Source: Candidatus Bathyarchaeota archaeon (GTDB lineage: Archaea > Thermoproteota > Bathyarchaeia > Bathyarchaeales > DTEX01). From it: a DNA stretch of 64,000 nucleotides. Position numbers and translations under genes: made by a program. The stretch is from positions 384,001 to 448,000 of the forward strand of contig CAVQNT010000006.1 of NCBI GenBank assembly GCA_963714275.1, given 5' to 3'. Shown here one piece after another: positions 7,361 through 53,405 of the stretch. Every line of letters begins with the position of its first letter. The stretch's first letter is position 1. Under the pieces are notes generated by a model. That model saw only the letters and a list, made by a program, of their open reading frames with translations. It was not told the DNA's origin and did not search any database.

Positions 7361-7531
7361 ATCATACAAACGGAAAATTCTATTGTCACACAAAACAGGA
7401 CAGGTCTAAGACAGCACTGTTCGTTACACAAAATTGAAAATCGAATGTTACACAAATCAGATAGGTCTTAGACGATATTGTTTGTTGTTCAAAATGCAAA
7501 TTCAGTTGATGAACAAATCAGACCAGACAGA
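7361..7531 (-). repeat. Dispersed 61-bp-unit repeat, copy A (3 units, reverse orientation)
   Basis: Reverse complement aligns by eye with 28671-28790, 31936-32045 and 53298-53405 (TCTGWTTTGTKYRACA...TTTG...ACAA...GTCYTAGACCT). Confidence 0.85.
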
Positions 7532-7643
7532 TCCGCATAAATCGAATAATAGAATAGTATAAACTTTTTTTTAAAAAAAATGAAATTGTTTCTTTACATG
7601 AAATAGAACTTTTGCAGAGTCAAACATACTAAGAATTATTGGA

Positions 7644-7844
7644 TTACCTTATTGTGGATTTTTCTTCTTTCTGGTAGTAGTCTGTCCATTTGAGTTTTCG
7701 TGCGTCTCGCTTCAGTTTCACAGCGCTTTTCCTACATTTGCTTGAACAGAACCACAGGATTGCGCCATCGCCTCTAATGTACATCATTCCTGTGCCCCGC
7801 GGAAACTCGTGACCGCAGAACGCGCATTTTTGGGATTTAGGCAT
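7644..7844 (-). CDS. rpl24e: 50S ribosomal protein L24e
   Basis: CAFCG...PRGTGMMYIRGDG...FCSSKC...KLKWT. Confidence 0.96.
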   Translation of the reverse strand: MPKSQKCAFCGHEFPRGTGMMYIRGDGAILWFCSSKCRKSAVKLKRDARKLKWTDYYQKEEKSTIR

Positions 7845-7913
7845 TTTCAGTTTCTCCGAATGTTAACTGCAAATAATCATCCAAGGTGGCTGATGCGAGG
7901 TTCAGTTGGTTTG

Positions 7914-8132
7914 CTACCTAATTTTTCGGGCTTCCCTTTCTGTCTCTCTCAACATAAGGATGTCTTCCAACCGAATTGGTCCCTTAATGTTCCTTGTTAT
8001 AATGCGTCCTTTGTCGGGACCTTCGAGGATTCTGACCCTAACCTGAATGATTTCGCCTGTTGATCCCGTTCTGCCGACAATTTGAATGACTTGCGCAGGA
8101 GTTTGGGCTACCTCGCTTTCTTTCTGGCTCAT
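7914..8132 (-). CDS. rps28e: 30S ribosomal protein S28e
   Basis: [34 protein letters not shown]. Confidence 0.96.
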
Positions 8133-8518
8133 TAACTGGAACCTTCCTTGATCCTCCGTATCCGAGTCACAATTTCTGCGACTAGGTCGGATGCTTCTCC
8201 AGTCTCAACGATGCACACAGCGGCAGATTGAACATCGATTCCCACAGAATTTCCAAGTTTAACTTTACTTGGGACAAAAACGAAAGTGATCTTCCTTTCG
8301 TCGCATAGTATTGGAAGATGGGCAACCACTTCAGGCGGATCAACGTCCTCAGCTATGATGACAAGCTTCGCCTGTCCCCTTTCTATCGCTTTGGTTGTTT
8401 CATTGGTACCTTTACGTATGCTACCCGTTCGCGTTGCTATTTGAAGCGCCTCGTACGCAGCGTTGGCTACTTCTGCTGGTGTCTCAAACTTTATGAAGAA
8501 TGGTTTCGACATGTTCAT
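8132..8518 (-). CDS. rpl7ae: 50S ribosomal protein L7Ae
   Basis: [28 protein letters not shown]; start may be the second ATG (8512). Confidence 0.96.
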
Positions 8519-8529
8519 TCACCGAAACT

Positions 8530-8548
8530 TCATCAACACATGTTTCAG
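8530..8548 (-). promoter_or_regulatory. Candidate L7Ae-binding K-loop/K-turn in the rpl7ae leader
   Basis: Minus strand reads CTGA-aacatgtgt-TGATGA between a TATA-like element (8581-8587) and the GGTGA RBS. Confidence 0.5.
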
Positions 8549-8686
8549 TTTACGTTTAACCCTAACTGTGAACGTCTCCCTATATATGTTACGGTTTTAA
8601 TGTCAACATTGTAACCTAGAGATCAATAGGATATTAAAACAAAATGGCGAAAAATACTATTATAGGAAAAACGTAGACTCTACGGC

Positions 8687-8911
8687 TTAAACGCTTATGA
8701 CTTTTTTGACTTGGGGAACCTTGCTTTTCAGGTATCGTTCAACGCCTAACTGCAGAGTCATCTGAGACATGGGGCATCCTGCGCATGCACCCTTCAGCTT
8801 AACCTTGACGGTTCCTTCCTTGTCAACATCAACGAGTTCGATGTCTCCGCCGTCCGCCACAAGGTGCGGTCTAATCTCATTGATTATTTTCTCAACCTCG
8901 TCTTTCAACAC
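8687..8911 (-). CDS. NifU C-terminal (Nfu) domain protein
   Basis: IRPHLVADGGDIELV, GACAGCPMS. Confidence 0.92.
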   Translation of the reverse strand: MLKDEVEKIINEIRPHLVADGGDIELVDVDKEGTVKVKLKGACAGCPMSQMTLQLGVERYLKSKVPQVKKVISV

Positions 8912-8971
8912 CCATTCGCTCCTGACCTGATTGACTTTGTTGTGATACCTTTCCGAAAATATAAACGTTCC

Positions 8972-10735
8972 TTATCTATGGGCATAAACCACCCCGATTT
9001 TTTCGTTCTTCTGATCAACCCTCACGAACCCAAAACGTTCAAACTGAACAATCTGACCGACCGAAACGTTACGGAACGCATCTTCCGCCAAACCTTTCAC
9101 TGATGAGCCGTCGGGTATCAAAACCTCGCATGAGACTCCTTCATCCACTGGCAACCAGTGAACCAATGGCACCCTTAGCCGTCTCGCATCATCGTAGGCT
9201 TCGCTGAAATAAGTAGCAGAGAATCCTGTTTCGGTTGCATCTTGAACTTTAACGTTGAAGATCTCCATCAACCGAATGACAGAACCATTCGCAAACAAAG
9301 CTTTATCCCTGCTTGAAACAAGAATCTCCGCTTCATCATTCCGAGGTTTAACGATAAGAGTTCGGTGTCCCCGTTCAGGATGGTCAGGAAGAAAGGGAAT
9401 ATGAGCCGCATACGGTTTTTTGACTCCTTTTACAGTAAGTTTTAACGGTTCTTGAACGAAGAAGAACCTGTCTGCTGTCGGATCAATAATTTTTTTATTG
9501 TAAGCGTAAAGGTTCTCCCAACTGAGGGTAATGTCAACGGGTCTCGGACCAATGTCCAGTATGAGATGCCTTAGGGCGCCAGGCTGTATTCCCCTGCGAC
9601 TCAAAGCCCTGAAAGTTGCAAGCCTAGGATCATCCCAACCCGTGTAGGTTCCATCCTGAACGCCGTGGACAATCTTCGACTTGCTCAATGTGGCTCCAAC
9701 AATCTTGAGCCTGCCGTAATGGATTGCTTCCGGATACTTCCACCCAAGATATGCGTAAAGGTACTCCTGCCTTCTCTGGTTTGCCAAGTGTTCTTTGCCA
9801 CGAATAACATGGGTGATGTCGTTAAGGTGATCGTCGACGCCGTTCGCAAAAGCAAAAAGCGGCCAGACACGATACTTCCTGCCTACCCTTGGATGAGGAT
9901 ACTTCTTGGGATCAACAATTCTGAAAGCTGGCCACTCTCGGATTGCGGGGTTCGGATGATCAAGGTCCGTTTTGACTCGTACGACAGCTTCACCTTCGCC
10001 GTATTCTCCGCTAAGCATGGCTTGCCAACGGTTCATGCTCTCTTCAGGGCTAAGGATTCTGCATGGACACGGTTCTCTGACGGTTACTTTTTCGTGGAAA
10101 TCCTCACGTTTGCATGTGCAGACGTAGGCGTGTCCGTCTTTCAGCAACTTCTCCGCATGCTTGTAGTAAATTTCGATGCGGTCGCTTTGTATGTATTCAG
10201 CATCCCATTCGCACCCAAGCCACCTTAGGTCTTCTCTGATTAAATCGTAAAATTTCAGGGCAGATTTCTTTAAGCGTGTATCTGTGTCTTCGAACCTCAA
10301 AATAAACAAGCCATCATACATATGTGCGTACTCGTGACTCAAAATCACAGCACGAGTCGACCCGATGTGAAGAACCGCGTCAGGGTTAGGAGCAAAACGC
10401 GTGACAACCTGCTTGTACTTTTCGACATTCGGCAACAGCGGAAGTCCTTTCTTCTCTTCAATTTTTCCCTTCTCCTCTAAGAGTGTTGGCCAAAGCTTTC
10501 TAACAATTTCCTTCTGTTTTTCCAAGGTGAAAGAGTTAACTTCGTGAACAACAGTGTCCACTAAAGAAGTGGCTTCTGCGACTTTCCCTCTTAACTCAGG
10601 ATTTTCAGCCAGCAACCTCCCGAGAATAGGTTTCGGTTGTGCCTTTCCTTCATGCTCGATGGCGTTTGTTAGGGCTATTTTGCGAATGGTTTCTTTGATT
10701 TCTAAATGTTTCCCGGAGTCTCTTGAACATACCAT
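8972..10735 (-). CDS. gltX: Glutamate--tRNA ligase (archaeal type)
   Basis: RFAPNPDAVLHIG, LRFEDTD, RGKEH, LSKS, QFERFGF. Confidence 0.96.
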   Translation of the reverse strand: MVCSRDSGKHLEIKETIRKIALTNAIEHEGKAQPKPILGRLLAENPELRGKVAEATSLVDTVVHEVNSFTLEKQKEIVRKLWPTLLEEKGKIEEKKGLPLLPNVEKYKQVVTRFAPNPDAVLHIGSTRAVILSHEYAHMYDGLFILRFEDTDTRLKKSALKFYDLIREDLRWLGCEWDAEYIQSDRIEIYYKHAEKLLKDGHAYVCTCKREDFHEKVTVREPCPCRILSPEESMNRWQAMLSGEYGEGEAVVRVKTDLDHPNPAIREWPAFRIVDPKKYPHPRVGRKYRVWPLFAFANGVDDHLNDITHVIRGKEHLANQRRQEYLYAYLGWKYPEAIHYGRLKIVGATLSKSKIVHGVQDGTYTGWDDPRLATFRALSRRGIQPGALRHLILDIGPRPVDITLSWENLYAYNKKIIDPTADRFFFVQEPLKLTVKGVKKPYAAHIPFLPDHPERGHRTLIVKPRNDEAEILVSSRDKALFANGSVIRLMEIFNVKVQDATETGFSATYFSEAYDDARRLRVPLVHWLPVDEGVSCEVLIPDGSSVKGLAEDAFRNVSVGQIVQFERFGFVRVDQKNEKIGVVYAHR

Positions 10736-10766
10736 TCTTTCTTGCCACCGAGGTCATGTAGATTGT

Positions 10767-11849
10767 TTACGTGTTTCTTTCTATAAGATAGTCGGCGAGT
10801 GCCTTCAAAACATTCTTTGAATCAGAAGGCAGAAGAATTTTATCAACTTCATCCCAGCTCTCACGAACCAACGTTGATGCACATTTCTTAGCGTACTCTA
10901 TTGAGCCATATTTGTTGAATAACTGGATTGCTTTTCTCCTCAACGTTACGTCGGTTGTGTGCAGGCTGAGAATCTGCGTTAACTCTTTTTTGTCCGCAGA
11001 AGACGATTTTCTGAAAGTATGAATGACAATTAACGTCAGCTTTCCTTCAGTGATGTCCATTCCCAATCCGCCTTTTCCTTTGGCAAACTGTTCGCCAACA
11101 AGGTCCAAAACGTCGTCCTGAATTTGGAAAGCCACACCGACGGACTCAGCGAACTTCCCCATCTTCTCAACTGTGTCATCGTCAGCAGCTGCAAGCACTG
11201 CTGCCATTCTTGCTGCCATTCTCGCGAGGGTTCCAGTTTTGTAGGAACACATTTGTAGGTATTGTTCCTCAGAAACCTCGTTTATTGGTGATAAGCCGTT
11301 GTGCCACGCTATGTCGATTGCTTGCCCGAAGTTAATGTTAACCATCTCTTGGACGTAAATTTCGTACAGTCTCTTCGCCCGTTTAGACGTAAGGCAACCA
11401 GCGTTCTCGTTCAATGCGAGCATAGGCAGGAAGTACATCACGTTTGAAAGGTTAATTGCAACATCAACCCCAAACAGTTCGTAGGTGCACGGCTTTCCCC
11501 GCCTCATCTTTGAGGAATCCTCAATGTCGTCCGCAATCAAGGTTCCGTTATGAATGATTTCAGGAATCGTGGCAAAGTCCAAAAATCTCTCAGAATCCCC
11601 ACCTAAAGCGTCGCAAACTAGAACAAAAAGTGCTGGTCTCCAACGTTTGCCCCCTCGGTCCATGAAGTCCCAAAAAGGCTTAGCCACTGTCTTGTTTAAG
11701 GCACTCAAGTCAAGATTGTTTCTTGGAAGGCAGATTTTCAGGATTAAGGAGTCATCTTTGAATTCCCTAGGCACGTACTTCTCGATATAGCGGTCGATTA
11801 ATTCCGCCTTCTGCCTTAGTATTCGTTCTATTGTGTCATCGACGCTCAT
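10767..11849 (-). CDS. idsA: Polyprenyl (geranylgeranyl) diphosphate synthase
   Basis: GGKRWRP, DDIED, FQIQDDVLD, DITEGK; position in the isoprenoid cluster. Confidence 0.9.
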   Translation of the reverse strand: MSVDDTIERILRQKAELIDRYIEKYVPREFKDDSLILKICLPRNNLDLSALNKTVAKPFWDFMDRGGKRWRPALFVLVCDALGGDSERFLDFATIPEIIHNGTLIADDIEDSSKMRRGKPCTYELFGVDVAINLSNVMYFLPMLALNENAGCLTSKRAKRLYEIYVQEMVNINFGQAIDIAWHNGLSPINEVSEEQYLQMCSYKTGTLARMAARMAAVLAAADDDTVEKMGKFAESVGVAFQIQDDVLDLVGEQFAKGKGGLGMDITEGKLTLIVIHTFRKSSSADKKELTQILSLHTTDVTLRRKAIQLFNKYGSIEYAKKCASTLVRESWDEVDKILLPSDSKNVLKALADYLIERNT

Positions 11850-11858
11850 CCCGACTGG

Positions 11859-12975
11859 TCAACCTCCTCGTCCCGCATAGCTCACCAAGTTGAAACCTCT
11901 TGCCCGTAGCCATTCCGCAGTTTTTCCGCTTACTATAACTGGAACAGCCTTTAACCCTTCAATCGAAGAAGCCCCAACAAGAAACATGATGGTTCGCAGT
12001 TGGCGAATGACGAGGTCAAGTTTCATCTTAACTTCTTCGCTGTCCTTCAAAGATGGACCTAAAACAGGAAGCGCAAATCCCGCCAAAGATGCCCCTAAAG
12101 TTAAAGACTTCGCGACGTCGCTGCCTGTGCGGACGCCGCCAGATGCAATTACGGGCACACTGACTGACTGAACCGCCTCAATAAGCGTGACAACAGTCGG
12201 TATCCCCCAATCCCACAGGTCCTTGCCAATTTCCTGCCCCAAAATGTCACCGCGTTGTTTGGCTCTGTAATATTCAACTGCTGCCCAGCTCGGTTCCCCC
12301 TGCTCCTGCAACGTCGATGCCTGAGACTCCAGCATCCACAAGTTTCTTAGTGTCTTCAGTCGATATACCCGCGCCTGTCTCCTTAACGATAACTGGAACA
12401 TCAAGGCTTTTCGCAAGTTCCCCTATTTTCTGTAGAATTCCTGTATAATTGGTTTCTCCTTCTGGCTGCACGGCTTCCTGAAGAGGATTAAGGTGGACTG
12501 CCAAAGCGTCAGCGTTCACCATGTCTACTGCTTTTTTGATTTGGCCTAAGCTGTATCCCTTCTTAATCTGTGGAGCACCAATGTTAGTGAGAATGAAGGC
12601 GTTTGGTGCTTTTTTCCTGACGATTGAGTAGGTTCGTTCAAGTTTCAGGTTTTCAAGGGCTGCTCTTTGGCTCCCGACTCCCATGCCGAGTCCAAGTTCC
12701 TCAACAGCTTCAGCGATAGCTGCATTAATCTGGAATGCCTTTTCGGTTCCTCCAGTTATTCCGGTGATTATCAAAGGCGCTGAGAACTTGTGACCGAAGA
12801 CTTGCGTTGAAAGGTCAACGTCTTTTTGGTTGATTTCGGGAAGTGCCCTGTGAATCAGAAAGACATCCTCGAAGCCTGTTGATGTTTTCTTTGCCTTTAC
12901 ATCTTCCTCTAGGCATATACATATGTGTTCAGTTTTCCTTTCCTCTGTCTGCTTAGCTTGGGATTTACGGTTCAA
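11859..12975 (-). CDS. fni: Type 2 isopentenyl-diphosphate isomerase (indel near 12290)
   Basis: RKTEHI, GITGG, GVGSQRAA, HLNPLQEAVQPEG, KETGAG, IASGGVR; TTG start inferred. Confidence 0.93.
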
Positions 12976-13759
12976 TTTTTGTGCCAACAACCTTCTCTCC
13001 TTTAAGGACTTTGTATATATTACCTGATTTGGAAGCATTCACTATCATAGTCTCGATACCTTTCGTGACTAGTAAAGTGAGCTCTGAAACTTTGCCCAAC
13101 ATTCCGCCTGTAACATCAGTAACTCCTGTTCCGCTAATTCTATTTTTTGGGTTTTTAAGCTCAGCTAACGTTAAGTGCTGAATCAAACGGGCTGAGGGAT
13201 TCTTTTTTGGGTCATCTGTGAAAATTCCGTCAACATCAACTCCCATTATGAGCCTTTGAGCCTTCATTTTTTCCGCTAGAAAAGACGCTAATTGGTCTCC
13301 TGAAAGAACTGTGAAACCCATGTTCAAGTCTAGAACAACATCTCCATATAAAACTGGAACAAGACCCATCTTAACTGCCTGTTTTAGAGTTTCCTTATTA
13401 AAAACGTGGATTCGACCCGACTTCGTGATTATAAAAGATGAAGGAGCCATCCCGAAAGCTGGAACTCCCTTCCTAAGTAGGCTTTCCAGTATTATCTTGT
13501 TCAAAGAAACCATAGCCTCATGGGTCTCCGAAAATCCCGCGAGCTGAGACTTGTCTTTAAACCCGTCTGCGATGCCATATTTTTCGGCAATCGGGTGACC
13601 GAAGCTTCCTCCCCCATGAACCAAAATGAGCTTTGATGGCTGTGCTTGGAAGATTTCGTCTGCAAGCCTTTTTATAGCTGGAAAATTAGGCGTTAAGGGT
13701 CTAGCCTTTTCCGTGATGACGGAGCCTCCGAGCTTCAACACCAAAAGTTTATTCCTCAA
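12965..13759 (-). CDS. ipk: Isopentenyl phosphate kinase
   Basis: [29 protein letters not shown]; lies between mvk and fni. Confidence 0.92.
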
Positions 13760-14734: not shown

Positions 14735-14881
14735 ACCATTACCTCCAATGCAGATTAGTCTTGGACGTAGTCAATACCGAGAGATTTTAACCGTTTGGGT
14801 TTATCAGATAATCTGTCGAATCTTCGATATAAAACACTTTGATTTTCGAAACGTTAAGAAAGAAACCGAAAAATGCTTCCG

Positions 14882-15584: not shown

Positions 15585-15588
15585 CTCC

Positions 15589-16841: not shown

Positions 16842-16842
16842 G

Positions 16843-17070
16843 TTACGTTGTTTCCTCCTCTTTTTCCATGGATGGTCTTTCGTAAAACTTTATGATCTCG
16901 TCTATTATCTCAACGTGCGACAAAAGCATGCGTCGGCAACAATAACGAGTGATACCCAAATCGTCCAAGACTTTCCCCGAATTTTCTCCCGCCTTAACTC
17001 TCTTAGCGAACTCTTCCCACTTGTCGCCGACGAGTTTTCCGCATGTGAAACACCTAACAGGTATAATCGT
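16843..17070 (-). CDS. rpoN: DNA-directed RNA polymerase subunit N (Rpo10); absent from the ORF track, start codon reads ACG
   Basis: Hand translation (T)[20 protein letters not shown]...[24 protein letters not shown]. Confidence 0.95.
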
Positions 17071-17107
17071 CTTTGTTCCCTTCCTTCACATCATTATTTT
17101 ATGCTGT

Positions 17108-33485: not shown

Positions 33486-33566
33486 CGGTCTGTTTTGTGT
33501 AACAAATGGCAACTAAAAAAAGATAGGTCTGATTTGTTCGACAACCAAAAAACAATAATGAACAAT
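33486..33566 (+). repeat. Dispersed repeat, degenerate copy E
   Basis: GGTCTGTTTTGTGTAACA (33487) and GGTCTGATTTGTTC-N20-GAACAA (33526-33565). Confidence 0.7.
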
Positions 33567-33604
33567 AAATTATGATCCAAATACATTTTTTGTTAAAAAA
33601 AATT

Positions 33605-33982
33605 TCGGTTCAGTTTGGGAAGCCTAGTCTAGTGTGCGATTTTCAAGAGCTGTACCGTTACCTCATGGACGATTTTCTAATCCAATACTGCCAGAATCTC
33701 AAGGTTAGAGACTTTACGGTTAAATCTGAAAGGCTTTCTAGAAACAAGATGGCGAAGAGGGAATACTTGAATGATCCTAAAACCTCAGACTTGATGAAGA
33801 AGCTTAACCTGTATTTTGAAGGCAAGGTTGAAATTCCCAGAATAAAATATGGTAGAAGGCAGTCTCTTGAGACCTTGATTAACGAAGAAGCCTTACTATT
33901 CGCCAAGTTTCTAAGAGATGAAAGAGAAGCATGGAATCCTAGAATCGCAAGTCTCTTGGTGTACGTCTACCTCTACGTCTAG
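33605..33982 (+). pseudogene. cas1: 5'-truncated solo Cas1 (C-terminal third)
   Basis: SVQFGKPSLVCDFQELYRYLMDDFLI matches the Cas1 'H...SLxxDxxExxR' segment; ETLINEEALLFAKFLR C-terminal helix; no N-terminal part upstream. Confidence 0.75.
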
Positions 33983-34105
33983 GGGGGTATATATAATAAG
34001 GAGGGAAGGGGAGGGGAAGGATATAGGGAAGGATAAGAGTTAGTTTGGGGTTTGGGTTTGGGGATTAAATTTTAATATCAAAACATGAATGTTTAATATT
34101 TTTTG

Positions 34106-35216
34106 TCAGCCTGACTTTTTTGGGTATTTTCCATGTTTGGTTCCGATTTTTAGCATTGCTTTGTAGTTTTCGATTTTCATGTAGTTCGTTATCGAGTTTC
34201 CTGAGCCTAAGGCGTAGCCTCCTCCGGGCATGCACTTTTCGAGAATCACGCGCGTGTATGCTTCCAATTCAGCCACAGGGAGGCGGGAAAGCTTGTCCAC
34301 GTCCACTCCCCCGAGCAGTGCGACTCTGTGCCCGTATTTTTCTTTGGCTTCCGTAACGGGCATGATGTTGTCCTGAAAAGAGTGCCAAGCATCTATCCCA
34401 ACATAGTCAATCAAGTCGTCAATGACCCTTCTCAAGTTGCCGCACGAATGAAGAATAAATGGCTTCCTATGACTATGGGCTATCTCGACACACCGTTTTT
34501 GCCAAGGGAAAACGTACTTGCGGAGGTTCTCAGGAGAAATCATGGTTCCAGACTTATACGCCATGTCGTCCCCCATCCTCATCGCACCGACCCTATTGTT
34601 TTCAGTGATGCGCTTGTCCACCTCCACGATCATAGAACCAATCCTGTCGAACATACTTTCAATCAGCTTCGGGTCTCTGAAAAGGGCTATCGAGAAAGGG
34701 CGGAGACCCATCAGCCACAAAGCATGCTCCAAGACCCCCCCAGCTACCCCCGAAACCGAGCTTCATGTTTTCAGGCAGAATCTTGCACATCCTTTCAAGC
34801 ACATCGTATTCGACAAGATCTTCACTGTCTGGCCACGGATAACTTTCAAAGTCTTCCCGCTTTTCGATTGTCCCACGGTTCTCGTCAACCCACATCCTCG
34901 TTCCTCTCGAAAGGGGAGCTGGGTCCTTGCCCAGTCTGATGTTCGTCCGTGGAAGGTTAAGAGGCAACTCCAAAGGAACATAGTCGTACCCCAAACCCTT
35001 GTAGAACCTAAGAAGACAGTTCACGAAGCCCTCTTTAACCGAGTCCGCCTTGGAAGCTTCACCTGAACGTGGCACGCCAGGCTCCAGAAGGGCGGGAACG
35101 GGTTCACCGATTATGGCTTCTATCACTTCGTTGTCTACCAAATGCTCGTAGAACGGAACATGGTCAGGCTCCTCGCCCCACAAAACCTTAACAAACCTTT
35201 CAAAATCGGGCTCCAT
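34106..35216 (-). CDS. Uroporphyrinogen decarboxylase / MtaA-CmuA family protein (indel near 34750)
   Basis: EPDHVPFYE, GDDMAYK, ILHSCGN, GGVDVD, YALGSGNSI. Confidence 0.85.
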
Positions 35217-41855: not shown

Positions 41856-41870
41856 TATTTATGACAAAAT

Positions 41871-43149: not shown

Positions 43150-43174
43150 AGTTAACATTTTTCATTTTTTTCTT

Positions 43175-45205: not shown

Positions 45206-45241
45206 ATACTAATACTTAAGTAACACGGAGAAGCAGCCAGT

Positions 45242-46688: not shown

Positions 46689-46701
46689 CTTTGTTTCCTT
46701 C

Positions 46702-47097
46702 TTACATTACTTTTCCTTGGACGTTCAATAAAAGTTCATGAATGCTTTGAATCTCAGAATCGGAAGGTTCAACGGTCGCCTTGATACCCTTCAGCGACGG
46801 CATTCCAGTTCCATCCGTGTTCGATGTTAAGACTTGGTTTACCCACGGACCATAAGGAATGAACGCCATGCTAGGTGTTTTAATTCTTCGTGACTTCTTT
46901 GCTTTAAGCACAACTGAACCAAACTCGGTTGTCACCTTTACGTTGCTGTTATCTTTGATTCCGAGCTTTTTCATGTCTTCCGCGTTCATCTCGCAGACTG
47001 CAACGTTTTCCACATATTCTTCAGAGAATTTGCCTGCTTCTTTTCCGCAACCCTGGTCTATCGTTCTACCCGTCAGCAGCGTGACTTCCAATCCCAA
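46702..47097 (-). CDS. fwdD: Formylmethanofuran dehydrogenase subunit D
   Basis: LLTGRTIDQG, FIPYGPWVN, TGMPSLKG. Confidence 0.92.
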   Translation of the reverse strand: MGLEVTLLTGRTIDQGCGKEAGKFSEEYVENVAVCEMNAEDMKKLGIKDNSNVKVTTEFGSVVLKAKKSRRIKTPSMAFIPYGPWVNQVLTSNTDGTGMPSLKGIKATVEPSDSEIQSIHELLLNVQGKVM

Positions 47098-47310
47098 TCA
47101 TCAACTACCGTATTGTTTACTTTGTATTCGCTTCCGCGTTAATCAACTTACCGTTGAACAATATTAGCGACTTTGTGTCATAAAAGAAATCTACATACAA
47201 TCATTATGAAATTTCTATTAAGCCTTAATATGGCTGAGACGTATATTCCTAAATTAAGACACCACAAAAAAGAGTCGATGATCATACGACAAGAAGCGGA
47301 GAAATGATGA

Positions 47311-48207
47311 ATGCCTAAACTGAACGGAGTTGAAATTGAGGACACTTTTGCAGAGCTTTTCGAAATGTGGGCTGGCAGAATCATAATCACAGCTGAAAAT
47401 GGGAAGTGGGCTCTCACTGCAGCTAATGTCGCAACAGGATACGCTTCCTCGATTATTGGTTCACCCGCTGAAGCTGGCATAGAATCCAACGTTGCATTAA
47501 ATGAAACTCCTGACGGCAGACCTGGCGCGATCATTCAGATTTATCACCAAACGAGGAGTGACCTTAAAAAACAGATGATTGGCAGAATAGGGCAGTGCGT
47601 CATGACGTGTCCCACAACAGCTGCTTTCGACGGTTTACCTTCAGCAGTCAGAAAGCTCAGGGTTGGCAGAAGCCTCCGGTTCTTTGGCGATGGCTTCCAG
47701 AAAAAAGAAGAGTTTGAAGGCAGAAAAATTTGGCATATTCCGGTTATGGAAGGTGAGTTCGTTGTTGAAAGCAGCTTCGGCGCTGCGAAGGCTGTGGCTG
47801 GGGGCAACTTTCTCATCTTTGCATCCGACTTTAGAAGTGGTCTCAGAGCAGCTGAGGAAGCTGTTGATTCTATTCGTCGCAACGCGAAACATGTGATTAT
47901 GCCTTTTCCGGGAGGAATATGCAGGTCCGGCTCCAAAGTTGGCTCCTTGAAGTATAAGCTTCCAGCATCGACTAATCATCTGTTCTGTCCAACATTAATA
48001 GACTATGTTCCAGACACACAGGTTCCGAAGAACGTAAAAAGCATATACGAAATTGTGATCAACGGTCTCGACTTGGAATCCGTAAAGAAGGCAATGAGCG
48101 AAGGAATAAAGGCAGCCGATAAAGTTGAAGGCGTAGTTAAAATTTCCGCAGGCAACTATGGCGGAAAAATTGGTCCTATGAGAATATTCTTACGCGACAT
48201 TGTATAA
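47311..48207 (+). CDS. ftr: Formylmethanofuran--H4MPT formyltransferase
   Basis: NGVEIEDTFAE, TPDGRPG, RIGQCVMTCPT, RSGSKVGS, SAGNYGGK. Confidence 0.96.
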   Translation: MPKLNGVEIEDTFAELFEMWAGRIIITAENGKWALTAANVATGYASSIIGSPAEAGIESNVALNETPDGRPGAIIQIYHQTRSDLKKQMIGRIGQCVMTCPTTAAFDGLPSAVRKLRVGRSLRFFGDGFQKKEEFEGRKIWHIPVMEGEFVVESSFGAAKAVAGGNFLIFASDFRSGLRAAEEAVDSIRRNAKHVIMPFPGGICRSGSKVGSLKYKLPASTNHLFCPTLIDYVPDTQVPKNVKSIYEIVINGLDLESVKKAMSEGIKAADKVEGVVKISAGNYGGKIGPMRIFLRDIV

Positions 48208-48356
48208 TAGAAGCTTTTATTGGTCCATGTCTTGGCTGAAGCGTTCTTCCCCATGTTTTATGTGCAAAATTTCCTTAAATATTAGTTTATTATGAACAGA
48301 AACCAGAAGCGAAGACTTACATCGATGTTAGTTCAACTTTTTCGTGCGGGACTTAC

Positions 48357-49281
48357 ATGACCAAATGTTCAGTTTGTAAACGGAACAAAGCTTTTTATGT
48401 TCGGGTTCACTCAGGGGAGAAACTTTGCAGGAAATGTTTTCTCAGTTCAGTCGAAAACAAGGTTCGGGTCACAATTGGCAAACATCGAATGTTCGACATA
48501 AATGACCGAATCGCCGTTGCGGTTTCAGGAGGAAAAGACAGCGTCAGCCTCCTGCATGTACTTTCAAAGATCGAGGCGGACTTTCCACAATCAACTTTAC
48601 AGGCAATAACCGTCGACGAAGGCATAAAGGGATACAGAGACGAAGCAGTAAAAAATGCAGAGGAAAACTGCAGCCAACTCGGAGTCAAACACTTAACGGT
48701 GTCTTTCAAGGAGACTTTTGGCTACACCTTGGACGAGATTGTAAAAAAGACCTGCAATGAAAAGATGACGCCGTGCGCCTATTGCGGAGTTCTGAGAAGA
48801 AGAGCCCTGAATGTCGCAGCGAAGCAGGTTGAAGCATACAAGATTGCCACAGCGCACACTTTGGACGACGAGATTCAGACTTTCCTCCTCAACATTGTGC
48901 ACGGTGACCCATCAAGAATAGCCCGTTCAAATCCTGTTTTCAGACTCGAAACATTCGAGGCTGGTGCCAAGGGTGAAGCCTTTCTGCGAAATTACGGAAC
49001 GAGAATCCGCGTTATACGCTTTTACGATACGTATACCGTTTCAGGAGATGCCTTGCCCTTACGCAGGTGAAGCCCTAAGGAATGACGTTCGTAACACGCT
49101 TAACAGGCTTGAGGAAAAACATCCTAGCATGAAATACACCATTTATGGGTCTATGGAGAAAGTTCAACATGCATTCGAAGCAACAGCTGAAGAAACAATT
49201 TTGAAAGAATGCCAAGAATGTGGAGAACCGACAACCACAAACCTATGCCGAACTTGCCAAATCCTGCAAAAACTTGCATAA
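48357..49281 (+). CDS. tRNA 2-thiolation protein (TtuA/Ncs6 family; indel near 48950)
   Basis: N- and C-terminal Zn fingers, SGGKDS PP-loop, CAYCGVLRR, CPY. Confidence 0.9.
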
Positions 49282-49318
49282 CTATAAAGACTGTGAAGCA
49301 GGCAGAACAAGAGAAAAT

Positions 49319-49647
49319 GGCGGGCCACTGAGGTTGGACGCACAGTTTTCACCGGGTTCCATCGGACTCTTCACTCGTACCCGCACCCCTCTGAGCGCCG
49401 AACGTCCAAGCCTAGGTTGCTCCCTCCCGGGCCTAGCCAGGTTCACCTGGCAAACACAGTAACGGCCTCCTTACAGAGGACGCTCCGCGACCGCCAGCCC
49501 CAGAGGACGGATACTCATAGATGGACGACCGAGGTTCCCTGTGATCTTTTACGCCTCGCCTCAGCTGTCAGTCCGTCGTGAAGGGGGTTTACGGTCAAGG
49601 CTTTGAAGCCTCTCAAGGGACCCCTAGCCCCCCACTTGAGACCCGCC
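49319..49647 (-). ncRNA. ffs: Archaeal signal recognition particle (SRP) RNA
   Basis: Minus strand has the helix-8 motif TAGGCCCGGGAGGGAGCAACCTA, complementary ends GGCGGG...CCCGCC, about 330 nt GC-rich, TTTATTAA box upstream. Confidence 0.92.
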
Positions 49648-49697
49648 AAGAAAAACTAACGCTTAAGGATGTTAATAAAAGCTTTTGGAAATCTAAC

Positions 49698-50978
49698 TTA
49701 ACCTCTCTTCAGAATCTGCATCAGCATGGGCATTAGTTCGGTTCCGTGTTCTAATATGTCTAGGCTTCCTTTTCGGCAGCTTTTTCGGAGAATTCTTTTA
49801 TGCCGTCTGGTATGAGTTTGGCGCTTGCTATCAGTAATGGCACAGGGTCGTCGCTGTGGGCTTTCAGTTCGCACGGTGTCGAATGGTCAGCTGTTACGCA
49901 AATAAGTGTTTCTTTGAGGTTGATTTTTTGCATGATCCGCCCAAAGAAGTGTTTGTCGATGCCTGCGATTATCTGGGTCTTGTGTAGGTAGTCGCCGTCG
50001 TGCCCAGGTTCGTCGGGTCCTTTCAAGTGAATGTAGAAACAGTCGTATGACGGAAGGAGGTTCAGGAGGTTTTCGACCCTCATTTTCATGTCAGCCTCAA
50101 TGTCGGGAGAAGGAGGAGGAAGCTCAACCAAATCCATCCCCGCCAGCCTCGAGATTCCTCTTTCAACAGGCATGTCAGCTAAACAGGCAAAACGGACTCC
50201 GTAACGCTCATTGATGTCAAAGAATTTAGGCAACTCGTCACCTGCATCCCTTGACAATACAACGTTTGCCTTCAATTTTCCCTCAACTGCCCGCATCAGG
50301 TTCACCTCGTGCTTGTCCAGAACCTTGTGGCTTTTCTCGGTGAACTCGTTCACGAGCTGCGCCGAAATCTTCGCGGACTTCGTGTCAGCCATGGGCAAAC
50401 ATTCAGCTAGAACCATCTCAACATCTTTTTTGGCAACTCCGAGACCCGGACACTCTTTCATATGCGGGGTCTGTGTTCGAAATTTTGCCCGAAAGAAGAG
50501 TCTTCTTGCTTTTTATGACTAAGACGCCTCGGTGCCCAAGCGTGCTTTTAAAATATAATTCTGCAGGATGGGATTCCAGCTTCACCTTTTGGTTCATTTC
50601 TTCAGCAAGTATCGCTGCTTCTTCGGTTGACAGGTTTCTACCCGCTCTCCGGTCGATCAGTCTATTATTTTCGCCGAGGGTGGCAAAGTTGCATCTTAAG
50701 GCTAGGTCGCCGTTTTTCATGTCTAATCCAGCACCGTAGGCTTCCAGAGGTCCTCGTCCAACGTGGTACCTGTAAGGATCATAGCCTAGAATCGAGATGA
50801 CTGCCACGTCGCTTTCGGGCGCAATGCCTCTCCCAACAGTGTACATTAGACCGAGTTTTCCTTTGGTTGCCAAAAAATTCATGTTAAGGGCGTCAGCGAA
50901 CTCAAGGGGCGTTTTGTTGCCAAGCTCCGGGATAGGAAGGTCGCCCATGCCGTCTATAACCACATAAATGAGTTTCAG
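49698..50978 (-). CDS. apgM: 2,3-bisphosphoglycerate-independent phosphoglycerate mutase (indels; probable CTG start)
   Basis: IDGMGD, GIAPESD, GRGPLEA, HLKGPDEPGHDG, TADHSTP, HSDDPVP. Confidence 0.92.
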
Positions 50979-51151
50979 GGGTTGTTCCGCTCCTATAATT
51001 TGTTTGTATAGTTGCATCAATATGCTGTTGGGAATCTATAAAACCTTATAGTTGCCATATTGAGGAAAGGAAGAATTTACTTTAGGCACAGACAGACTTA
51101 TTAGAAAAAAAAGGCAAATCTAACACAGCATCATGGAGGGAAAGACGGATT

Positions 51152-52193
51152 ATGCCAGTTTTCACGGCTGAACAGTTAGGGAATGTTGGAACCAAAATTT
51201 TTTTGGCTGCAGGTGCACCGCACGAGGATGCTGAATGGGTTTCGAAGCTCCTCGTTAAAGCGAATCTCGTAGGGCATGACTCTCACGGCGTCATACGAAT
51301 CATGCAGTACGTGAGGGCAATCCAGAAGGGAGACATTAACCCGAACGCAAAAACTGAGGTTGTGAAAGAAACTCGTGCCTCAGCGTTAGTGAACGGAAAT
51401 TGGGGATTTGGACAAATAGTTGCTAGAAAAGCTATGGAAATCGCCATCAGCAAGGCACGGGAGAACACATGTGCCACCGTCTGTGCCTATGATTGTTATC
51501 ACATTGGTAGGCTGGCGGACTATTCGGAGATGGCTGCCGAGAACGGCATGATTGGATTAGTAATGGCGAACTCTCCCAGAAGCGTAGCAGTCTACGGAGG
51601 ATTGGACCGTTTGCTCAGCACTGGACCGTTGAGCTACGCTTTTCCAACCAGCGGCAAAGTTCCGTTCGTTCTGGACATTGCTACGAGCGTTATCGCGGAA
51701 GGGAAAGTCAGGGTCACGCTTCACAAGGGAGGCAAACTTCCAGAAGGCTGCATAATCGACAAAAACGGGAATCCGTCCACGAATCCCTCTGACCTCTACG
51801 ACGGTGGAGCCTTGTTGCCTTTAGGTGGCGACTCTTTTGGGTACAAAGGGTTCGGGATTGGGCTCGTAGTCGAGGTTTTAAGTGGCATCCTTTCAAAGTC
51901 AGGCTTCTCGTACCTGCCTGAAAAAAGGGGGAACGGCTTGTTCTTTCAAGACTATTGACATTGAAAGCTTCATGCCTGTTAACGAATTCAAGGAACAGGT
52001 TGATGCCCTCGTCCAAAAAATCAAATCATCGAAGCTCAGACCCGGATTCACGGAGATTCTGATACCCGGGGAACCTGAATTCAGGACTGAAAAGGAACGG
52101 TTGAAGAACGGAATCTCAATACCCGACAGGACTTTGGAAGAGATCAGGGCTACGGCGACAACATTAGGTTTGAACGTGGACACCTTAATTTGA
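51152..52193 (+). CDS. Ldh_2 family (malate/L-lactate/sulfolactate) dehydrogenase (indel near 51950)
   Basis: GHDSHG, HIGRL, LDIATS, GYKGFG, LIPGEPE. Confidence 0.9.
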
Positions 52194-52413
52194 CAATGAT
52201 TGCCTTGGGTTTGGCGTGATGATAAAAAAATTTTAATAATGATTTTTTTTCATTGTTTGATGCATTTTCCGTTATTGTTTTACGAATTTTTTACAGTTAA
52301 ATGTTAACCATTGTGGTTAGCCTTGAAGAACGGGATATTATTTTCTGATATACACGCATGATGGAAAGATGTTTAACCATACATTGTTATTATGAAACGG
52401 GCTAGGCGGGCAT

Positions 52414-53209
52414 ATGGGTCTCACCGATCTTATTGCGGATCTCGATTCTTACCTCAAAACGGGAGAAAAAGAACTGGAAGCTCTACATAATCTACTGCTT
52501 AATGGCAGGATTTCTCGATCAACTTTCGATCTGGTGGAAAAGAAGGTTAACCGAAAAAAGTCGCTTGTCTCGGAACTGAAAGAAGCCCTCAAAGCGGAAG
52601 AAGACTACTGGCAGAACAGCCTTTCGGACGCAACTCGGATTTTAGAGTGTCTTCTCGTAGAGTCTGAACACAGGCATCTTCTGGGCGAAATCAGCGAAGA
52701 CGAACTAAAACAGAAAGGCAGCATCATAAGCCTTGGGCTTGCATCTCTTACGAACAAAGATATTTCAGTAAATACCGTGATACAGGAGCCTGCCCAGCCC
52801 TTACAGATGACCCTTGAGCGGCACACGATCCCAGAGAATGCGCCAAAGCAAGAGATAATGGCAGTAGAAGAACCAGTAGTAGTGAAAGAAGAGCTAAATC
52901 ACTGAAAAGCCAATAGCAGATGAACCTGTTGCACCACCAACCTTAGCTGAAGAGAAAGTGGACATCGAATCTGTTCAACCCAAAAAGTCGCCTAACGGAG
53001 GACAGGCACCCAGCAAACGCAGAAAACCTCTAGCCAAGGAGCCGCCTGAAGTTGACTCTTCAGTTGGCTCGTCGGTTCACTGCATGAACCCGTGGAAGCC
53101 GGATTGCCGAAACACCGACATCGAGCTAAGCATTTACTATAAGGGACGTTCAATACCCATTTGCCGTAAATGCTGGGAAGAAATCTCCGACAAGAACATC
53201 GAATGGTAA
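52414..53209 (+). CDS. CdvA-like coiled-coil protein with acidic linker and C-terminal Cys4 motif (probable indel near 52900)
   Basis: ALHNLLLNGRISRSTF and LECLL...HLLGEISEDE resemble the CdvA helical repeats; CMNPW..C...PICRKCW at the end. Confidence 0.6.
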
Positions 53210-53297
53210 ACTCGTAAATAATGGAACATTTTACACGCAATTCTTGCATATACAAAATCTATAGACGCATTTTAGAACTGAAGTTTCAAGCGTTTCC

Positions 53298-53405
53298 GTC
53301 TGGTCTGATTTGTTCAACATCCGAATTTGGTGTTTGAACAACAAATACTATCTTCAGGAGGCTATCTGATTTGTGTGACATTAGAGTTTTTTGTTTTTTT
53401 GTTAC
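53298..53405 (+). repeat. Dispersed 61-bp-unit repeat, copy D (2 units)
   Basis: TCTGATTTGTTC at 53304 and TCTGATTTGTGT at 53365. Confidence 0.8.

Follow-up and report, generated by a model that had tools for sequence, protein, structure and literature searches.

Five arrays in the window and their surroundings

The window, a stretch of 64,000 nucleotides from a 2.64-Mb Bathyarchaeia genome (G000), contains five arrays of a repeat unit about 61 bp long, in all the places where a preliminary description of this DNA had put them. The arrays, the units that compose them and the features around them are as follows:

7350-7531, minus strand: array 1, with units A (7465-7524), B (7404-7461) and C (7350-7398) and a 5' junction CTGTCT; on one side is the start of an MBL-fold gene (6077-7063, minus), on the other the 3' end of an rps28e-rpl7ae pair (7914-8518, minus)
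23387-23661, no strand assigned: site filled in G002, which has an element and about 1.4 kb with two ORFs
28673-28790, plus strand: array 2, with units B (28673-28732) and C (28735-28787); the start codon of a 210-aa gene (28013-28645, minus) is 28 bp from its 5' end
31913-31938, plus strand: 5' flank of array 3, repeated at 33461-33486 before array 4
31939-32099, plus strand: array 3, with units B (31940-31998) and C (32001-32058) and a degenerate D-type tail (32061-32099); the 3' ends of an ADH-like gene (31066-31887, plus) and the 417-aa gene converge on it
32104-33357, minus strand: lone 417-aa gene, lying between arrays 3 and 4, which have the same orientation
33461-33486, plus strand: second copy of the 5' flank, TGCTTACGAGCT..., repeat family D3
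33487-33579, plus strand: array 4, degenerate, with a B unit truncated to one box (33487-33515), then an A-like unit (33526-33579)
33572-33982, plus strand: Cas1 C-terminal fragment, profile positions 223-279 of 283
53302-53405, plus strand: array 5, with unit A (53302-53358) and a degenerate C-like unit (53365-53396)

The motif TCTGWTTTGT occurs 10 times in the window (7452 and 7513 on the minus strand; 28675, 28736, 31941, 32002, 33489, 33528, 53304 and 53365), compared with a mean of 0.53 in dinucleotide-preserving shuffles, none of 100 of which reaches 10, and TTTGTGTRACA, expected 0.12 times, is present 8 times. The 61-bp period and the alternation of box spacings between 24 and 37 bp described for these loci both hold, as does the occurrence of TTGTTC-N20-GAACAA at 7485, 33534 and 53310.

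Array 3 extends past its earlier-noted end, to about 32099, through the degenerate D-type tail, and has about 26 nt of 5' flank in common with array 4 (80% over 44 nt including the element start); the two arrays therefore form a local direct duplication around the 417-aa gene. The encoded protein has an N-terminal hydrophobic stretch and a 73% identical ortholog in G002, with no Pfam match and no full-length paralog. Array 4 is missing from the orthologous site in G002 and lies at the truncation point of the Cas1 gene in G000; an intact Cas1 ortholog is present in G001, and homology to it starts about 40 bp past the array. Both the copies flanking a lone gene and the adjoining cas1 remnant were thus correctly described. 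In G002 and G004 the array orthologous to array 3 has a different unit content. An element in G002 links the 5' flank of array 2 with the 3' flank that another element has in G000 (C5:76050). The insert at 23387-23661 is also found, with an identical CCAAC junction, in a contig of run X5, and G000 has only a box-like remnant at 23396-23413, CCGTTTTTTGTGTAAACA.

Unit architecture, distribution and age of the family

Each unit begins GTCTG(A/T)TTTG and holds two direct TTTG-N6-CA boxes exactly 24 bp apart, with a conserved 13-nt spacer between them, followed by a variable linker of about 16 nt that usually closes in GTCTWAGAC-C. GTCTWAGAC is a palindrome, and the unit junctions bear short inverted GTCT/AGAC motifs. 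Information content is up to 2 bits per position over the first 45 nt or so and 0.1-0.7 bits over the last 16 or so, and the same contrast between core and linker is seen inside a single unit type. Box 1 equals box 2 in the three nucleotides before the final CA in 108 of 161 strictly defined units, falling into at least six matched classes (2000 shuffles gave a mean of 28.6 and a maximum of 44), a matching that, like the conservation of the core, is inflated by the shared descent of the units. The preliminary description treated the palindromic unit as a type of its own; the palindrome is there, but "palindrome" and "direct" units align without gaps as variants of one two-box unit.

Searching the whole of G000 (nhmmer, E<0.05) yielded 64 loci with 98 units (36 A, 26 B, 24 C and 12 other), many more than the five loci first reported. 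All 64 are intergenic, in contigs whose coding fraction is 60-78% by a crude gene caller. Units A, B and C and the tails D or E stand head to tail in a fixed 5'-to-3' order, A<B<C<D/E, which is kept at 60 of the 64 loci, with whole units often absent, so that 28 architectures result. Tails nearly always follow on the 3' side in the same orientation, with a unit no more than 80 bp away for 12 of 13 D-core matches and 6 of 9 E-end matches. Successive units are mostly spaced at about 61 bp (54-67), and wider gaps, of 115-116 and 155-181 bp, also occur.

The family was found by BLAST in 4 of 47 genomes of the taxonomic family (G000, G002, G004 and G013) and is missing from 4 of the 7 genomes of the genus. 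A strict search for the two-box pattern gave 11, 15, 12 and 4 occurrences in these four carriers and none in the other 43 genomes, and the reversed control gave none at all. Among genomes from other families of the order, 0 of 16 carry the family; a class-wide sample gave 2 of 401. The copies are old, with no near-identical pairs: aligned over at least 100 bp, the closest paralogs reach 89.5% identity, 257 alignments have a median of 75%, and the longest exact word common to two loci is 45 nt. Rfam returned nothing for the arrays even at E up to 1, and phage, plasmid and viral collections contained no match. A real dispersed family with conserved spacing is upheld, and we regard the arrays, with moderate confidence, as lineage-restricted, dispersed, strictly intergenic, polar mosaic DNA repeats; no known repeat family corresponds to them.

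Rearrangement at element loci

All genomes compared are metagenome bins. When 22 element loci of G002 were examined, 9 were collinear with an element locus in G000, 7 connected, in unchanged polarity, flanks that belong to two separate G000 element loci, and 6 bordered G002-specific DNA. At the collinear loci the arrays are heavily restructured in unit number and type, and the flanking coding sequence is 88-92% identical. The suggested tie to variable DNA and gene-content breakpoints holds in that, of 13 curated long-range junctions, 7 fall inside an element of G002, compared with 22 of 150 intergenic gaps that contain one (binomial P 1.1e-3), a count biased by its coverage of about 243 kb of the 2.1-Mb genome, all but the last 11 kb of it chosen for elements.

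A 12.5-kb inversion has occurred between the inverted pair C3:201246-201460 (minus) and C3:213983-214038 (plus); both reciprocal junctions are present on two G002 contigs, with the crossovers inside elements. In G004 an array connects C7:93683 with C7:78237, which makes a second inversion junction, and a 4.3-kb insert in G002 is flanked by about 20 bp of duplicated unit sequence. Contigs of the same species (95-98% identity) are unchanged through the arrays in 7 of 13 cases, so array turnover is not fast. Congeneric genomes that lack elements also have synteny breaks at these gene-block ends; rearrangement in the genus can therefore take place without the elements, which may simply occupy places where breaks are tolerated.

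Interpretation and comparison with known systems

Our best reading, to which we give about an even chance, is a dispersed mosaic repeat like BOX, STAR or BIME, whose units bind a protein and serve ectopic recombination. The family would have proliferated in the ancestor of one small subclade of Bathyarchaeia and would no longer be visibly transposing. The two-box core is a candidate binding module for a protein, probably a dimer or tandem pair reading two like boxes. We infer binding only from conservation and box matching, because neither a binding protein nor a mobilising enzyme was found, and past mobility from copy number alone, because neither an insertion nor a target-site duplication nor an autonomous relative was found. 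Between species the copies act as dispersed substrates for recombination, with crossovers in elements inverting parts of the chromosome and altering unit number and type at fixed loci, and with adjoining accessory genes gained and lost alongside; the exchange could proceed by general homologous recombination or through one of many tyrosine recombinases. Neighbours of elements in G002 include an MvaI/BcnI restriction-modification pair, a nucleotidyltransferase, a YaaC-like protein and a TrmB-type regulator. Of the interpretation first offered, the dispersed family, its conserved spacing and the link to variable DNA stand; enrichment beside cas1 or integrases does not, and terminal inverted repeats, a clean target-site duplication and a true empty site were not found. 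Its two proposals for a role, as ends or attachment sites of a mobile or cassette system and as a chromosome-organisation site, are conceivable.

The units might instead be protein-binding sites that benefit the host, either loading or positioning a nucleoid or chromatin protein or forming the operator arrays of a large regulon. An archaeal histone tetramer wraps roughly 60 bp, close to the 61-bp period, and conservation of the core in old copies while the linker drifts, matched boxes within a unit and strictly intergenic placement are all compatible with such a role, as are the element of G013, a single two-box unit, and the retention of some sites across species, one of them, adjacent to a tRNA, perhaps across genera (L004 in G013 and C5:27424 in G000). 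We nevertheless think this unlikely, given that 43 of the 47 genomes, including more than half of those in the genus, do without the family and that orthologous loci vary freely in unit number and type. The 64 loci are not biased in how they are oriented or spaced with respect to genes (5' side: 35 gene starts, 29 gene ends; 3' side: 32 and 32; 14 loci between convergent genes), nor do they keep a fixed promoter distance of the kind that would favour an ordinary transcription factor operator, and their orientation along contigs is mixed. Recurrent neighbours, namely Gfo/Idh/MocA oxidoreductases and a wHTH/DUF7436 gene found in 26 of 47 genomes, are either not significant or one orthologous locus sampled several times.

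Dedicated site-specific recombination, with a tyrosine recombinase or some other enzyme bound to the units and strand exchange at the conserved GTCTWAGAC-C-TGTCTG junction, would produce inversions, whole-unit gain or loss and cassette insertion between direct element copies. Crossovers inside elements with polarity kept, the roughly 61-bp spacing of units that are gained or lost whole, the inverted motifs at unit junctions and two cases of DNA between direct copies (the 417-aa gene and the 4.3-kb G002 insert) resemble these outcomes. G000 has 18 tyrosine-recombinase matches, and an archaeal integrase makes inversions between repeats as short as 104 bp, as far as the account in PMC5495485 describes it. 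Such a system is distinctly improbable. No transposase, integrase or Cas1 co-occurs with the family: the carrier G004 has a single tyrosine-recombinase match and no Cas1, no carrier has a Y1 transposase, and G000 and G004 have no rve. The expected enrichment beside cas1 failed to appear (1 of 7 Cas1 matches near an element), as did that of integrases or of any paralogous gene family (best P = 0.009, uncorrected), and the two G000 tyrosine recombinases within about 1 kb of an element (C2:307530 and C7:58020) are close to the background of 10.7% of all genes within 2 kb of one. Neighbouring elements are in direct orientation in 15 of 26 pairs within 15 kb (P = 0.56), and same-species contigs seldom differ.

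Derivation from a known transposon, as a MITE, a REP/BIME with its RAYT, an IS200/605-type element or Tn7-like ends with TnsB sites, is very unlikely. Transposase-binding end arrays are direct arrays of short sites, which the TGT...ACA boxes recall, and the family is multi-copy, intergenic and lineage-restricted; a Tn7-like element is also on record in a wetland Bathyarchaeia bin (10.1101/2025.07.27.667033). Here, however, each locus is a single polar array with no terminal inverted repeats, no hairpin stability and no near-identical copy. Against the proposed transposase link stand the absence of Y1 from all four carriers and the restriction of rve to two matches each in G002 and G013, with no units near these genes; a TniQ search gave no match, but its controls were silent too, so it carries no weight. 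No clean target-site duplication was found, nor a true empty site, the sole candidate, where an element and a flavodoxin gene are missing from G000 (C6:535596-535611), being better read as a deletion than as an empty target.

Small non-coding RNA genes with their own promoter and terminator, at least for the E-tail subfamily, are the most improbable reading: these copies share a leader of about 50 nt in which an A/T box (TTTTTAAAAAG-like) precedes the first unit by 45-55 nt, and a T-run follows the tail, the two being placed as an archaeal TATA box and oligo-T terminator would be, but the A-B-C-D type has no conserved leader, the pooled upstream 20-100 nt of all 64 loci hold at most 0.2 bits per position, Rfam is silent, and the direct, matched boxes are unable to pair together. 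Fold z-scores were +0.12, -0.41, +0.18 and -0.76 on both strands, the mean z of 25 E-type copies was -0.22 (sense) and -0.08 (antisense), and RNAalifold on these 25 gave no consensus pair, and so neither a thermodynamic nor a covariation signal. That the family acts at the level of DNA and not RNA we hold with middling confidence.

Returning to the mosaic repeat that we prefer, several known systems offer parallels. In plasmid iteron arrays and the end arrays of Tn7 and Mu, one protein reads several short direct boxes set at a constant spacing, and the arrays adjoin their rep or transposase gene, with one or two such places in a replicon. The family described here resembles them in its direct boxes at fixed spacing and in the coexistence of direct and inverted box versions, but has 64 chromosomal loci with neither type of gene as neighbour. 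In BIMEs, palindromic units alternate in orientation and are associated with a Y1 (RAYT) transposase, whereas our units are direct and not hairpin-forming, in carriers without Y1.

In Thermococcales, close archaeal relatives differ by integrase-driven chromosome inversions that end in short repeats, a tyrosine recombinase recombining segments of about 100 bp; as far as that report goes, the enzyme is known and its substrates are att sites or any sequence pair (PMC5495485). Here a single dedicated repeat family with no linked enzyme is involved, in a genome, G000, that is also rich in tyrosine recombinases.

STAR elements are short GC-rich repeats with locus-specific spacers. In the Staphylococcus aureus work they are, like our arrays, interspersed intergenic direct repeats whose loci expand and contract, with copy number differing sharply among related species and with no known function (PMC3532100). 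Our arrays differ in a core of about 45 nt, spacer included, that is conserved across loci, in their polar unit order and in the D or E tails that close them.

BOX elements have the layout boxA-boxB-boxC; the Bathyarchaeia units differ from them as 61-bp two-box direct repeats in an archaeal host, with no sequence similarity. Pneumococcal BOX is described as having extensive secondary structure and as thought to be active when co-transcribed (PMC3049150, in the relevant part), unlike our arrays, which show no fold signal on either strand. In the same account, BOX elements are small interspersed intergenic repeats with a fixed module order and a variable number of internal modules, confined to one species group, with past proliferation and few new insertions now, and are judged parasitic rather than host-serving (PMC3049150, as far as described there), all likenesses to the family reported here.

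The window arrays and the two-box unit

The repeats in the window are real and highly non-random. Five intergenic arrays sit at the positions first given in the preliminary description, and the 61-bp period, the alternation of box spacings of 24 and 37 bp and the three TTGTTC-N20-GAACAA sites reported there are all correct. The unit start TCTGWTTTGT is present 10 times in the window against 0.53 expected, a count that none of 100 shuffles reached, and TTTGTGTRACA occurs 8 times against 0.12 expected. The loci were linked to one another by a repeat finder at 64-93% identity over 40-109 nt. The arrays are:

7350-7531 (-): array 1
28673-28790 (+): array 2
31939-32099 (+): array 3, reaching ~32099 through a degenerate tail
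33487-33579 (+): array 4
53302-53405 (+): array 5

Arrays 3 and 4 share ~26 nt of 5' flank (repeat family D3) and bracket, as direct repeats with this common flank, the gene for a 417-aa protein, for which a related-locus search found no relative. The genes flanking the five loci are unrelated: an MBL-fold protein, S28e/L7Ae, a 210-aa protein, a TRAM-domain protein, an Ssb-like OB protein, ADH, the 417-aa protein without family, a Cas1 fragment, DUF3795 and a metallopeptidase. Other features of the window are:

29067-29420: stretch with 80-82% identity in G001, G003 and G005 (element-free genomes of the genus) as against 66-71% for neighbouring genes; it holds a 64-aa TRAM-domain ORF (29237-29431), upstream of which lies a chance-level C/D-box snoRNA-like Rfam match at 29075-29123 (-), E = 0.37
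30583-30738 (+): 51-aa treble-clef zinc-finger ORF (PF23477)
33572-33982 (+): C-terminal piece of Cas1
33980-34076: purine-/G-rich low-complexity stretch ending in GGGGTTTGGGTTTGGGG, with a depth of 109-2249 in metagenome runs at position 34060
49318-49648 (-): archaeal SRP RNA (Rfam RF01857, 147 bits)
53459-54426 (-): DUF3795 and 'putative phage metallopeptidase' genes adjoining array 5, which may be a small mobile or defence-type islet

Contig depth is very high (~107-1060 in four metagenome runs) in the bin 30401-31000, where loose ends at 30514 and 30678 flank the high-depth piece; because of this depth, the PF23477 ORF looks like a small protein widely conserved across organisms.

When all loci of the source genome (G000) were aligned in register, a modular element was seen. 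Each unit starts with (G)GTCTG(A/T)TTTG and carries two TTTG-N6-CA boxes exactly 24 bp apart, with a conserved inter-box spacer of 13 nt (e.g., TTCGATTTTCAAT or TTAGAATTTTCCG), followed by a variable linker that usually ends in GTCTWAGAC-C, so that unit junctions read ...AGACCTGTCTG.... The first ~45 nt of the unit carry up to 2 bits per position and the last ~16 nt 0.1-0.7 bits, a contrast between core and linker that persists inside a single unit type. Units fall into three main types, and many arrays are terminated by one of two alternative 3' tails; the TTGTTCA...TGAACAA palindrome is a by-product of the type A box pair.

Unit types and 3' tails in G000
Type A: boxes TTCAACA/AACAACA; 36 of 98 units
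Type B: boxes TGTAACA twice; 26 of 98 units
Type C: boxes TGTGACA/CATGACA; 24 of 98 units
Other unit types: 12 of 98 units
Tail D: boxes CGGCGCA/GGGCGCA; 13 core matches genome-wide, 12 of them adjoining units
Tail E: ~110 nt; terminates in TTGGTTTCTGGGCTGAACGGAAT and a T-run

Every locus is one polar array, whose 5' end (GGTCTG) differs from its 3' end (the D or E tail). Although 28 architectures occur among the 64 loci of the genome, the order A<B<C<D/E is kept in 60 of them, and strand is uniform within all arrays except one, which holds facing copies (1/64). Further box classes (AGTGGCA, AGTGTCA and others) are present in the closest relative, G002, and in G004 of the same genus. These two genomes also carry an extra module, GGGGGTC..TCTCGTCCGATTATCTGACC, with the fuller form GGGGGTC..(A/G)T..TCTCGTCCGATT(A/G)TC(T/G)GACC, which follows a D tail or C unit and precedes the next A unit (G002 L037:10790-10835; G004 L007 and L127:5255-5300); none was found among the G000 copies aligned. 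In G013, from a different genus, the element is a lone B-type unit.

The two boxes of a unit tend to match. In 108 of 161 strictly defined units (69 from G000, 68 from the G002 stretches and 24 from the G004 stretches) box 1 equals box 2 in the three letters before the final CA, a count inflated by shared descent of the units, while shuffling box partners gave a mean of 28.6 identical pairs and a maximum of 44 in 2000 shuffles. In no fewer than six box classes, a change in one box is repeated in the other. Judged from the sequence, the matched boxes would be two like half-sites for one putative protein, and the unit design as a whole points to a putative DNA-binding protein. The combination of matched direct boxes at 24 bp, many box classes, polar modules and no RNA fold is unlike that of any repeat family with which it was matched.

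Distribution and placement of the family

By BLAST the element is carried by 4 of 47 genomes of the GTDB family: three of the seven of the genus (G000, G002 and G004) and G013 from another genus. A strict two-box pattern occurs 11, 15, 12 and 4 times in these four carriers and not at all in the other 43 genomes, and a reversed two-box control pattern gave no occurrences. A search of 16 genomes from other families of the order was negative, and a 401-genome sample of the class, scored for two candidates per genome only, gave matches in G000 and G004 alone. A metagenome scan matched at least 120 contigs. Eighty of these (366 kb) hold 145 units, and 57 of the 80 match G000 by megablast at a median identity of 88%.

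Scanning the genome with a model of the units, as the preliminary description had proposed, extends the family well beyond the window, which is C6:384001-448000 of G000. An HMM built from 11 window units (cut-off E<0.05) found 98 units at 64 loci in the 2.64-Mb, 10-contig G000 bin: 27 loci on C2, 5 on C3, 3 on C4, 6 on C5, 18 on C6 and 5 on C7, with no copy on C1, C8, C9 or C10. About 4 copies would be expected on C1 (162 kb) at the density of the other contigs and none is present; this contig may belong to another replicon, have been acquired recently or have been binned wrongly (estimated contamination 3.7%).

All 64 loci are intergenic according to a crude codon-usage gene caller, which called 60-78% of each contig coding. 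Their 5' neighbours are 35 gene starts and 29 gene ends, their 3' neighbours 32 of each, and the gene context is convergent at 14 loci, divergent at 17 and tandem at 33. Distance to the nearest gene ranges from overlap up to ~900 bp, orientation to the neighbouring genes is random, and so is the mutual orientation of neighbouring elements. The fixed promoter distance that the preliminary description had named as favouring a regulatory site was thus not seen, and the random orientation and variable gene distance rule out an ordinary operator or promoter element. Neither a fixed promoter position nor the coherent gene set of a transcription-factor operator was found; the flanking genes are unrelated, and 14 of 64 loci have convergent neighbours.

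Several elements are found 60-80 nt from a tRNA gene, on its 3' side (G000 C5:76115, C7:168221 and C5:27424; G013 L004), and one such tRNA-adjacent site may be common to G000 and G013. The element at C7:168221 stops after 27 nt and gives way to AT-rich DNA; neither a complementary half nor an att-like duplication was found for it.

Rearrangement at elements and age of the copies

We compared G000 with its closest relative, G002, in which coding sequence is ~88-92% identical, over 19 stretches (231,664 bases) chosen around elements. These stretches hold 62 units at 22 loci. Nine of the loci are collinear with a G000 element locus, seven (L029, L030, L031, L034, L037b, L038 and L039) combine flanks from two separate G000 element loci without a change of polarity, and six border G002-specific DNA. 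At the collinear loci the flanks are conserved and the arrays strongly restructured; the single unit at G000 C2:869134, for example, has a counterpart of 4-5 units in G002. From a list of 15 automatic junctions, with three artefacts removed by hand, 7 of 13 long-range junctions fall inside a G002 element, compared with an element in 22 of 150 intergenic gaps (binomial P 1.1e-3), an excess that is biased because the sample was chosen for elements. Next to elements, the DNA specific to G002 holds genes for an MvaI/BcnI restriction-modification pair, a YaaC-like protein, a TrmB-type regulator, a nucleotidyltransferase and family-less proteins; no integrase was found in it.

One rearrangement was recovered from both sides. 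G000 has an inverted element pair at C3:201246-201460 (-) and C3:213983-214038 (+). In G000 coordinates, G002 contig C103 runs from C3:212319 to 214001, through an element and on from C3:201294 to 197238, and G002 contig C7 runs from C3:214805 to 213978, through an element and on from C3:201419 to 209594. The two contigs are the reciprocal junctions of a 12.5-kb inversion, with both crossovers within elements. This arrangement is unlikely to be an assembly chimera, since the longest exact word common to two G000 loci is 45 nt. G004 has one junction of a second inversion (C7:93683, array, C7:78237), corresponding to the inverted pair at G000 C7:78312 (+) and C7:93760 (-). G001, G003 and G005 carry no elements, and their gene order breaks at these same gene-block ends too, with still other neighbours; the genus therefore rearranges without elements as well. 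Synteny with G001 is broken every 1-2 kb, and for this reason breaks relative to G001 were set aside as evidence.

Within the window, array 4 is specific to G000; G002 lacks it and runs on into another gene. The array lies ~40 bp ahead of the start of homology to the intact cas1 of G001, so at 33572-33982 the Cas1 fragment records a rearrangement with its end at the element. At 23387-23661, G002 and a contig from one metagenome DNA run (X5) carry an element and 1.4 kb, where G000 has only a box-like remnant; the X5 joint from 23387 to 33488, with CCAAC, is the same junction as in G002. The contigs from the four metagenome DNA runs are all short, and other joints at elements in them were set aside, as their sides of 38-44 nt probably derive from paralogous copies.

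The copies are old. Among paralog alignments of 100 bp or longer, the best reaches 89.5% identity and the median is 75% (257 alignments), therefore there are no recent copies; past spread of the family is inferred from copy number. Neither a clean target-site duplication nor a true empty site was found. The one apparent empty site, G000 C6:535596-535611, faces an insert of ~890 bp in contig L142 made up of a leader, a C unit, an E tail and the gene for a flavodoxin; each border carries CTTTT. As G002 and G004 carry the filled state, it reads as a deletion in G000, and no other was found among the 22 G002 loci. Thirteen metagenome contigs include a stretch that matches G000 at 93% identity or more. 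Of these, seven are collinear through the arrays, L185 has one extra unit, identity in L140 drops from 96% to 81% at the element, and others have different flanks. Within-species array change is slow.

Candidate partners, alternative readings and known repeat systems

Based on these observations, we favor a lineage-restricted, DNA-level mosaic repeat family whose units bind a putative protein and whose dispersed copies serve as recombination substrates; this is the most likely reading, and we give it roughly an even chance. In this reading the family would be new, and the literature searched contains no account of such repeats in Bathyarchaeia. The family is a sequence-defined marker of inversion, gene loss and gene gain in the genomes of one subclade of Bathyarchaeia, abundant uncultured sediment archaea in which the forces shaping genomes are little known.

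Host-serving binding arrays, with which the matched boxes would agree, are unlikely, and the random orientation relative to genes speaks against them. A dedicated site-specific recombination system is somewhat more doubtful still. In its fullest form, which we hold to be just as doubtful, the arrays would be the cis sites of an archaeal genome-shuffling system: a putative trans-acting recombinase, with or without an accessory protein, would read the matched boxes and exchange strands at unit junctions, giving inversions between inverted copies and loading or unloading of accessory genes between direct copies. That crossovers fall within elements, with polarity kept, speaks for site-specific exchange, and an archaeal integrase able to invert DNA between repeats as short as 104 bp is reported (PMC5495485). 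Were it true, the accessory cargo would comprise restriction-modification, other accessory or defence-type genes and surface proteins, and Bathyarchaeia would possess a dispersed, integron-like cassette and inversion system.

The search for a partner enzyme weighs against such a system. Within 2 kb of elements, none of the paralogous protein families of G000 is overrepresented (best P = 0.009, uncorrected), and the 80 metagenome contigs, out of at least 120, show no recurrent enzyme beside units. The enrichment of integrases that the preliminary description had envisaged was not borne out by the paralog families, and the integrase link was rejected; tyrosine recombinase matches number 18 in G000, 4 in G002 and only 1 in G004. 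The suggested link to Cas1 held in part: array 4 does adjoin a Cas1 fragment, but the other six of seven G000 matches are not near elements and G002 and G004 have none, so a casposon or Cas1 partner was rejected. Nor are there attC sites or cassettes of the integron kind, the loci being dispersed, with no integrase enrichment nearby and no hairpin signal.

Two of the seven G000 Cas1 matches are full-length and the others, including the window piece, are fragments. Those outside the window include C7:144376-145197, C4:100381-101202, C2:934184-934967, C2:354100-354432 and C9:5512-5739, full-length matches and fragments taken together. Cas1 without a CRISPR array in a simple scan may reflect unassembled arrays, decaying systems or Cas1-solo elements. 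In the region C2:354100-354878, ~300 bp separate a second Cas1 fragment from an ORF that matches the 417-aa protein at 55% identity over the initial 51 residues of the ORF, which echoes the window pairing of Cas1 fragment and 417-aa gene in a different arrangement.

Two recurrent neighbours were also considered. Gfo/Idh/MocA oxidoreductases adjoin elements in 7 of the 80 metagenome contigs (of at least 120), judged to be ~4 distinct loci. The family is apparently large in G000, and 6 members of a 25-member G000 paralog family, possibly this one, lie within 2 kb of an element (P = 0.045, uncorrected); we took this neighbourhood as chance. A wHTH/DUF7436 gene downstream of an element was rejected as a partner, being a single orthologous locus sampled repeatedly; the gene occurs in 26 of 47 genomes, including element-free ones, and has its own conserved promoter region.

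Descent from a known transposon class is improbable. The transposase link proposed in the preliminary description failed: none of the four carriers has a Y1 transposase, G000 and G004 have no rve, and no units lie beside the two rve matches each of G002 and G013. The 64 loci have no MITE terminal inverted repeats, and no autonomous relative with a transposase was found in carriers or near units. A Tn7-like element is reported from a Bathyarchaeia bin of a wetland (10.1101/2025.07.27.667033). Of the features of such transposons, neither paired ends nor, in G000 and G004, an rve gene was found; a search for TniQ gave no match in the carriers or in its control genomes and so carries no weight. 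BLAST against phage and plasmid sequences and a pattern scan of viral contigs gave no match. A CRISPR array was rejected because the 'spacers' are conserved between loci and Cas1 is absent from G002 and G004; the G000 scan found no run of at least 3 exact 18-mers at CRISPR spacing.

Small RNA genes, suggested by the ~50-nt conserved leader, the TTTTTAAAAAG-like box 45-55 nt upstream and the T-run past the tail in the E-tail subfamily, are the least probable reading, as the folding of two whole arrays is matched by that of shuffled sequences on both strands (z = +0.12, -0.41, +0.18, -0.76) and 25 distinct E-tail copies give a mean z of -0.22 sense and -0.08 antisense, with no RNAalifold consensus pair. 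The arrays also match no Rfam family, a match that the preliminary description had named as refuting its reading: at gathering scores the whole window yields SRP RNA alone, at E up to 1 six element loci give no matches, and 28600-34300 gives two chance-level matches, both outside arrays.

The mosaic family that we favor is best compared with bacterial interspersed repeats. REP/BIME-like palindromic hairpins in alternating orientation were not found, with one strand in 63/64 loci and z from -0.76 to +0.18, and RAYT (PF01797) has no matches in G000, G002, G004 or G013, with controls positive in 6 of 14 genomes. The elements share with BOX and STAR that they are intergenic, multi-copy, modular, lineage-restricted and variable in module number at fixed loci. 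This is a likeness by description, of a shared kind and not of a homologous family, and homology is not expected because the hosts are archaeal versus Gram-positive. Should the putative binding protein prove to be a recombinase, the arrays would constitute a new system of site-specific shuffling; if it is not, they are an archaeal counterpart of BOX/STAR/BIME repeats, still of use for strain typing, assembly checks and studies of repeat-mediated rearrangement. In its behaviour the two-box family resembles BOX (PMC3049150), STAR (PMC3532100) and BIME repeats, but it is a member of none of them.
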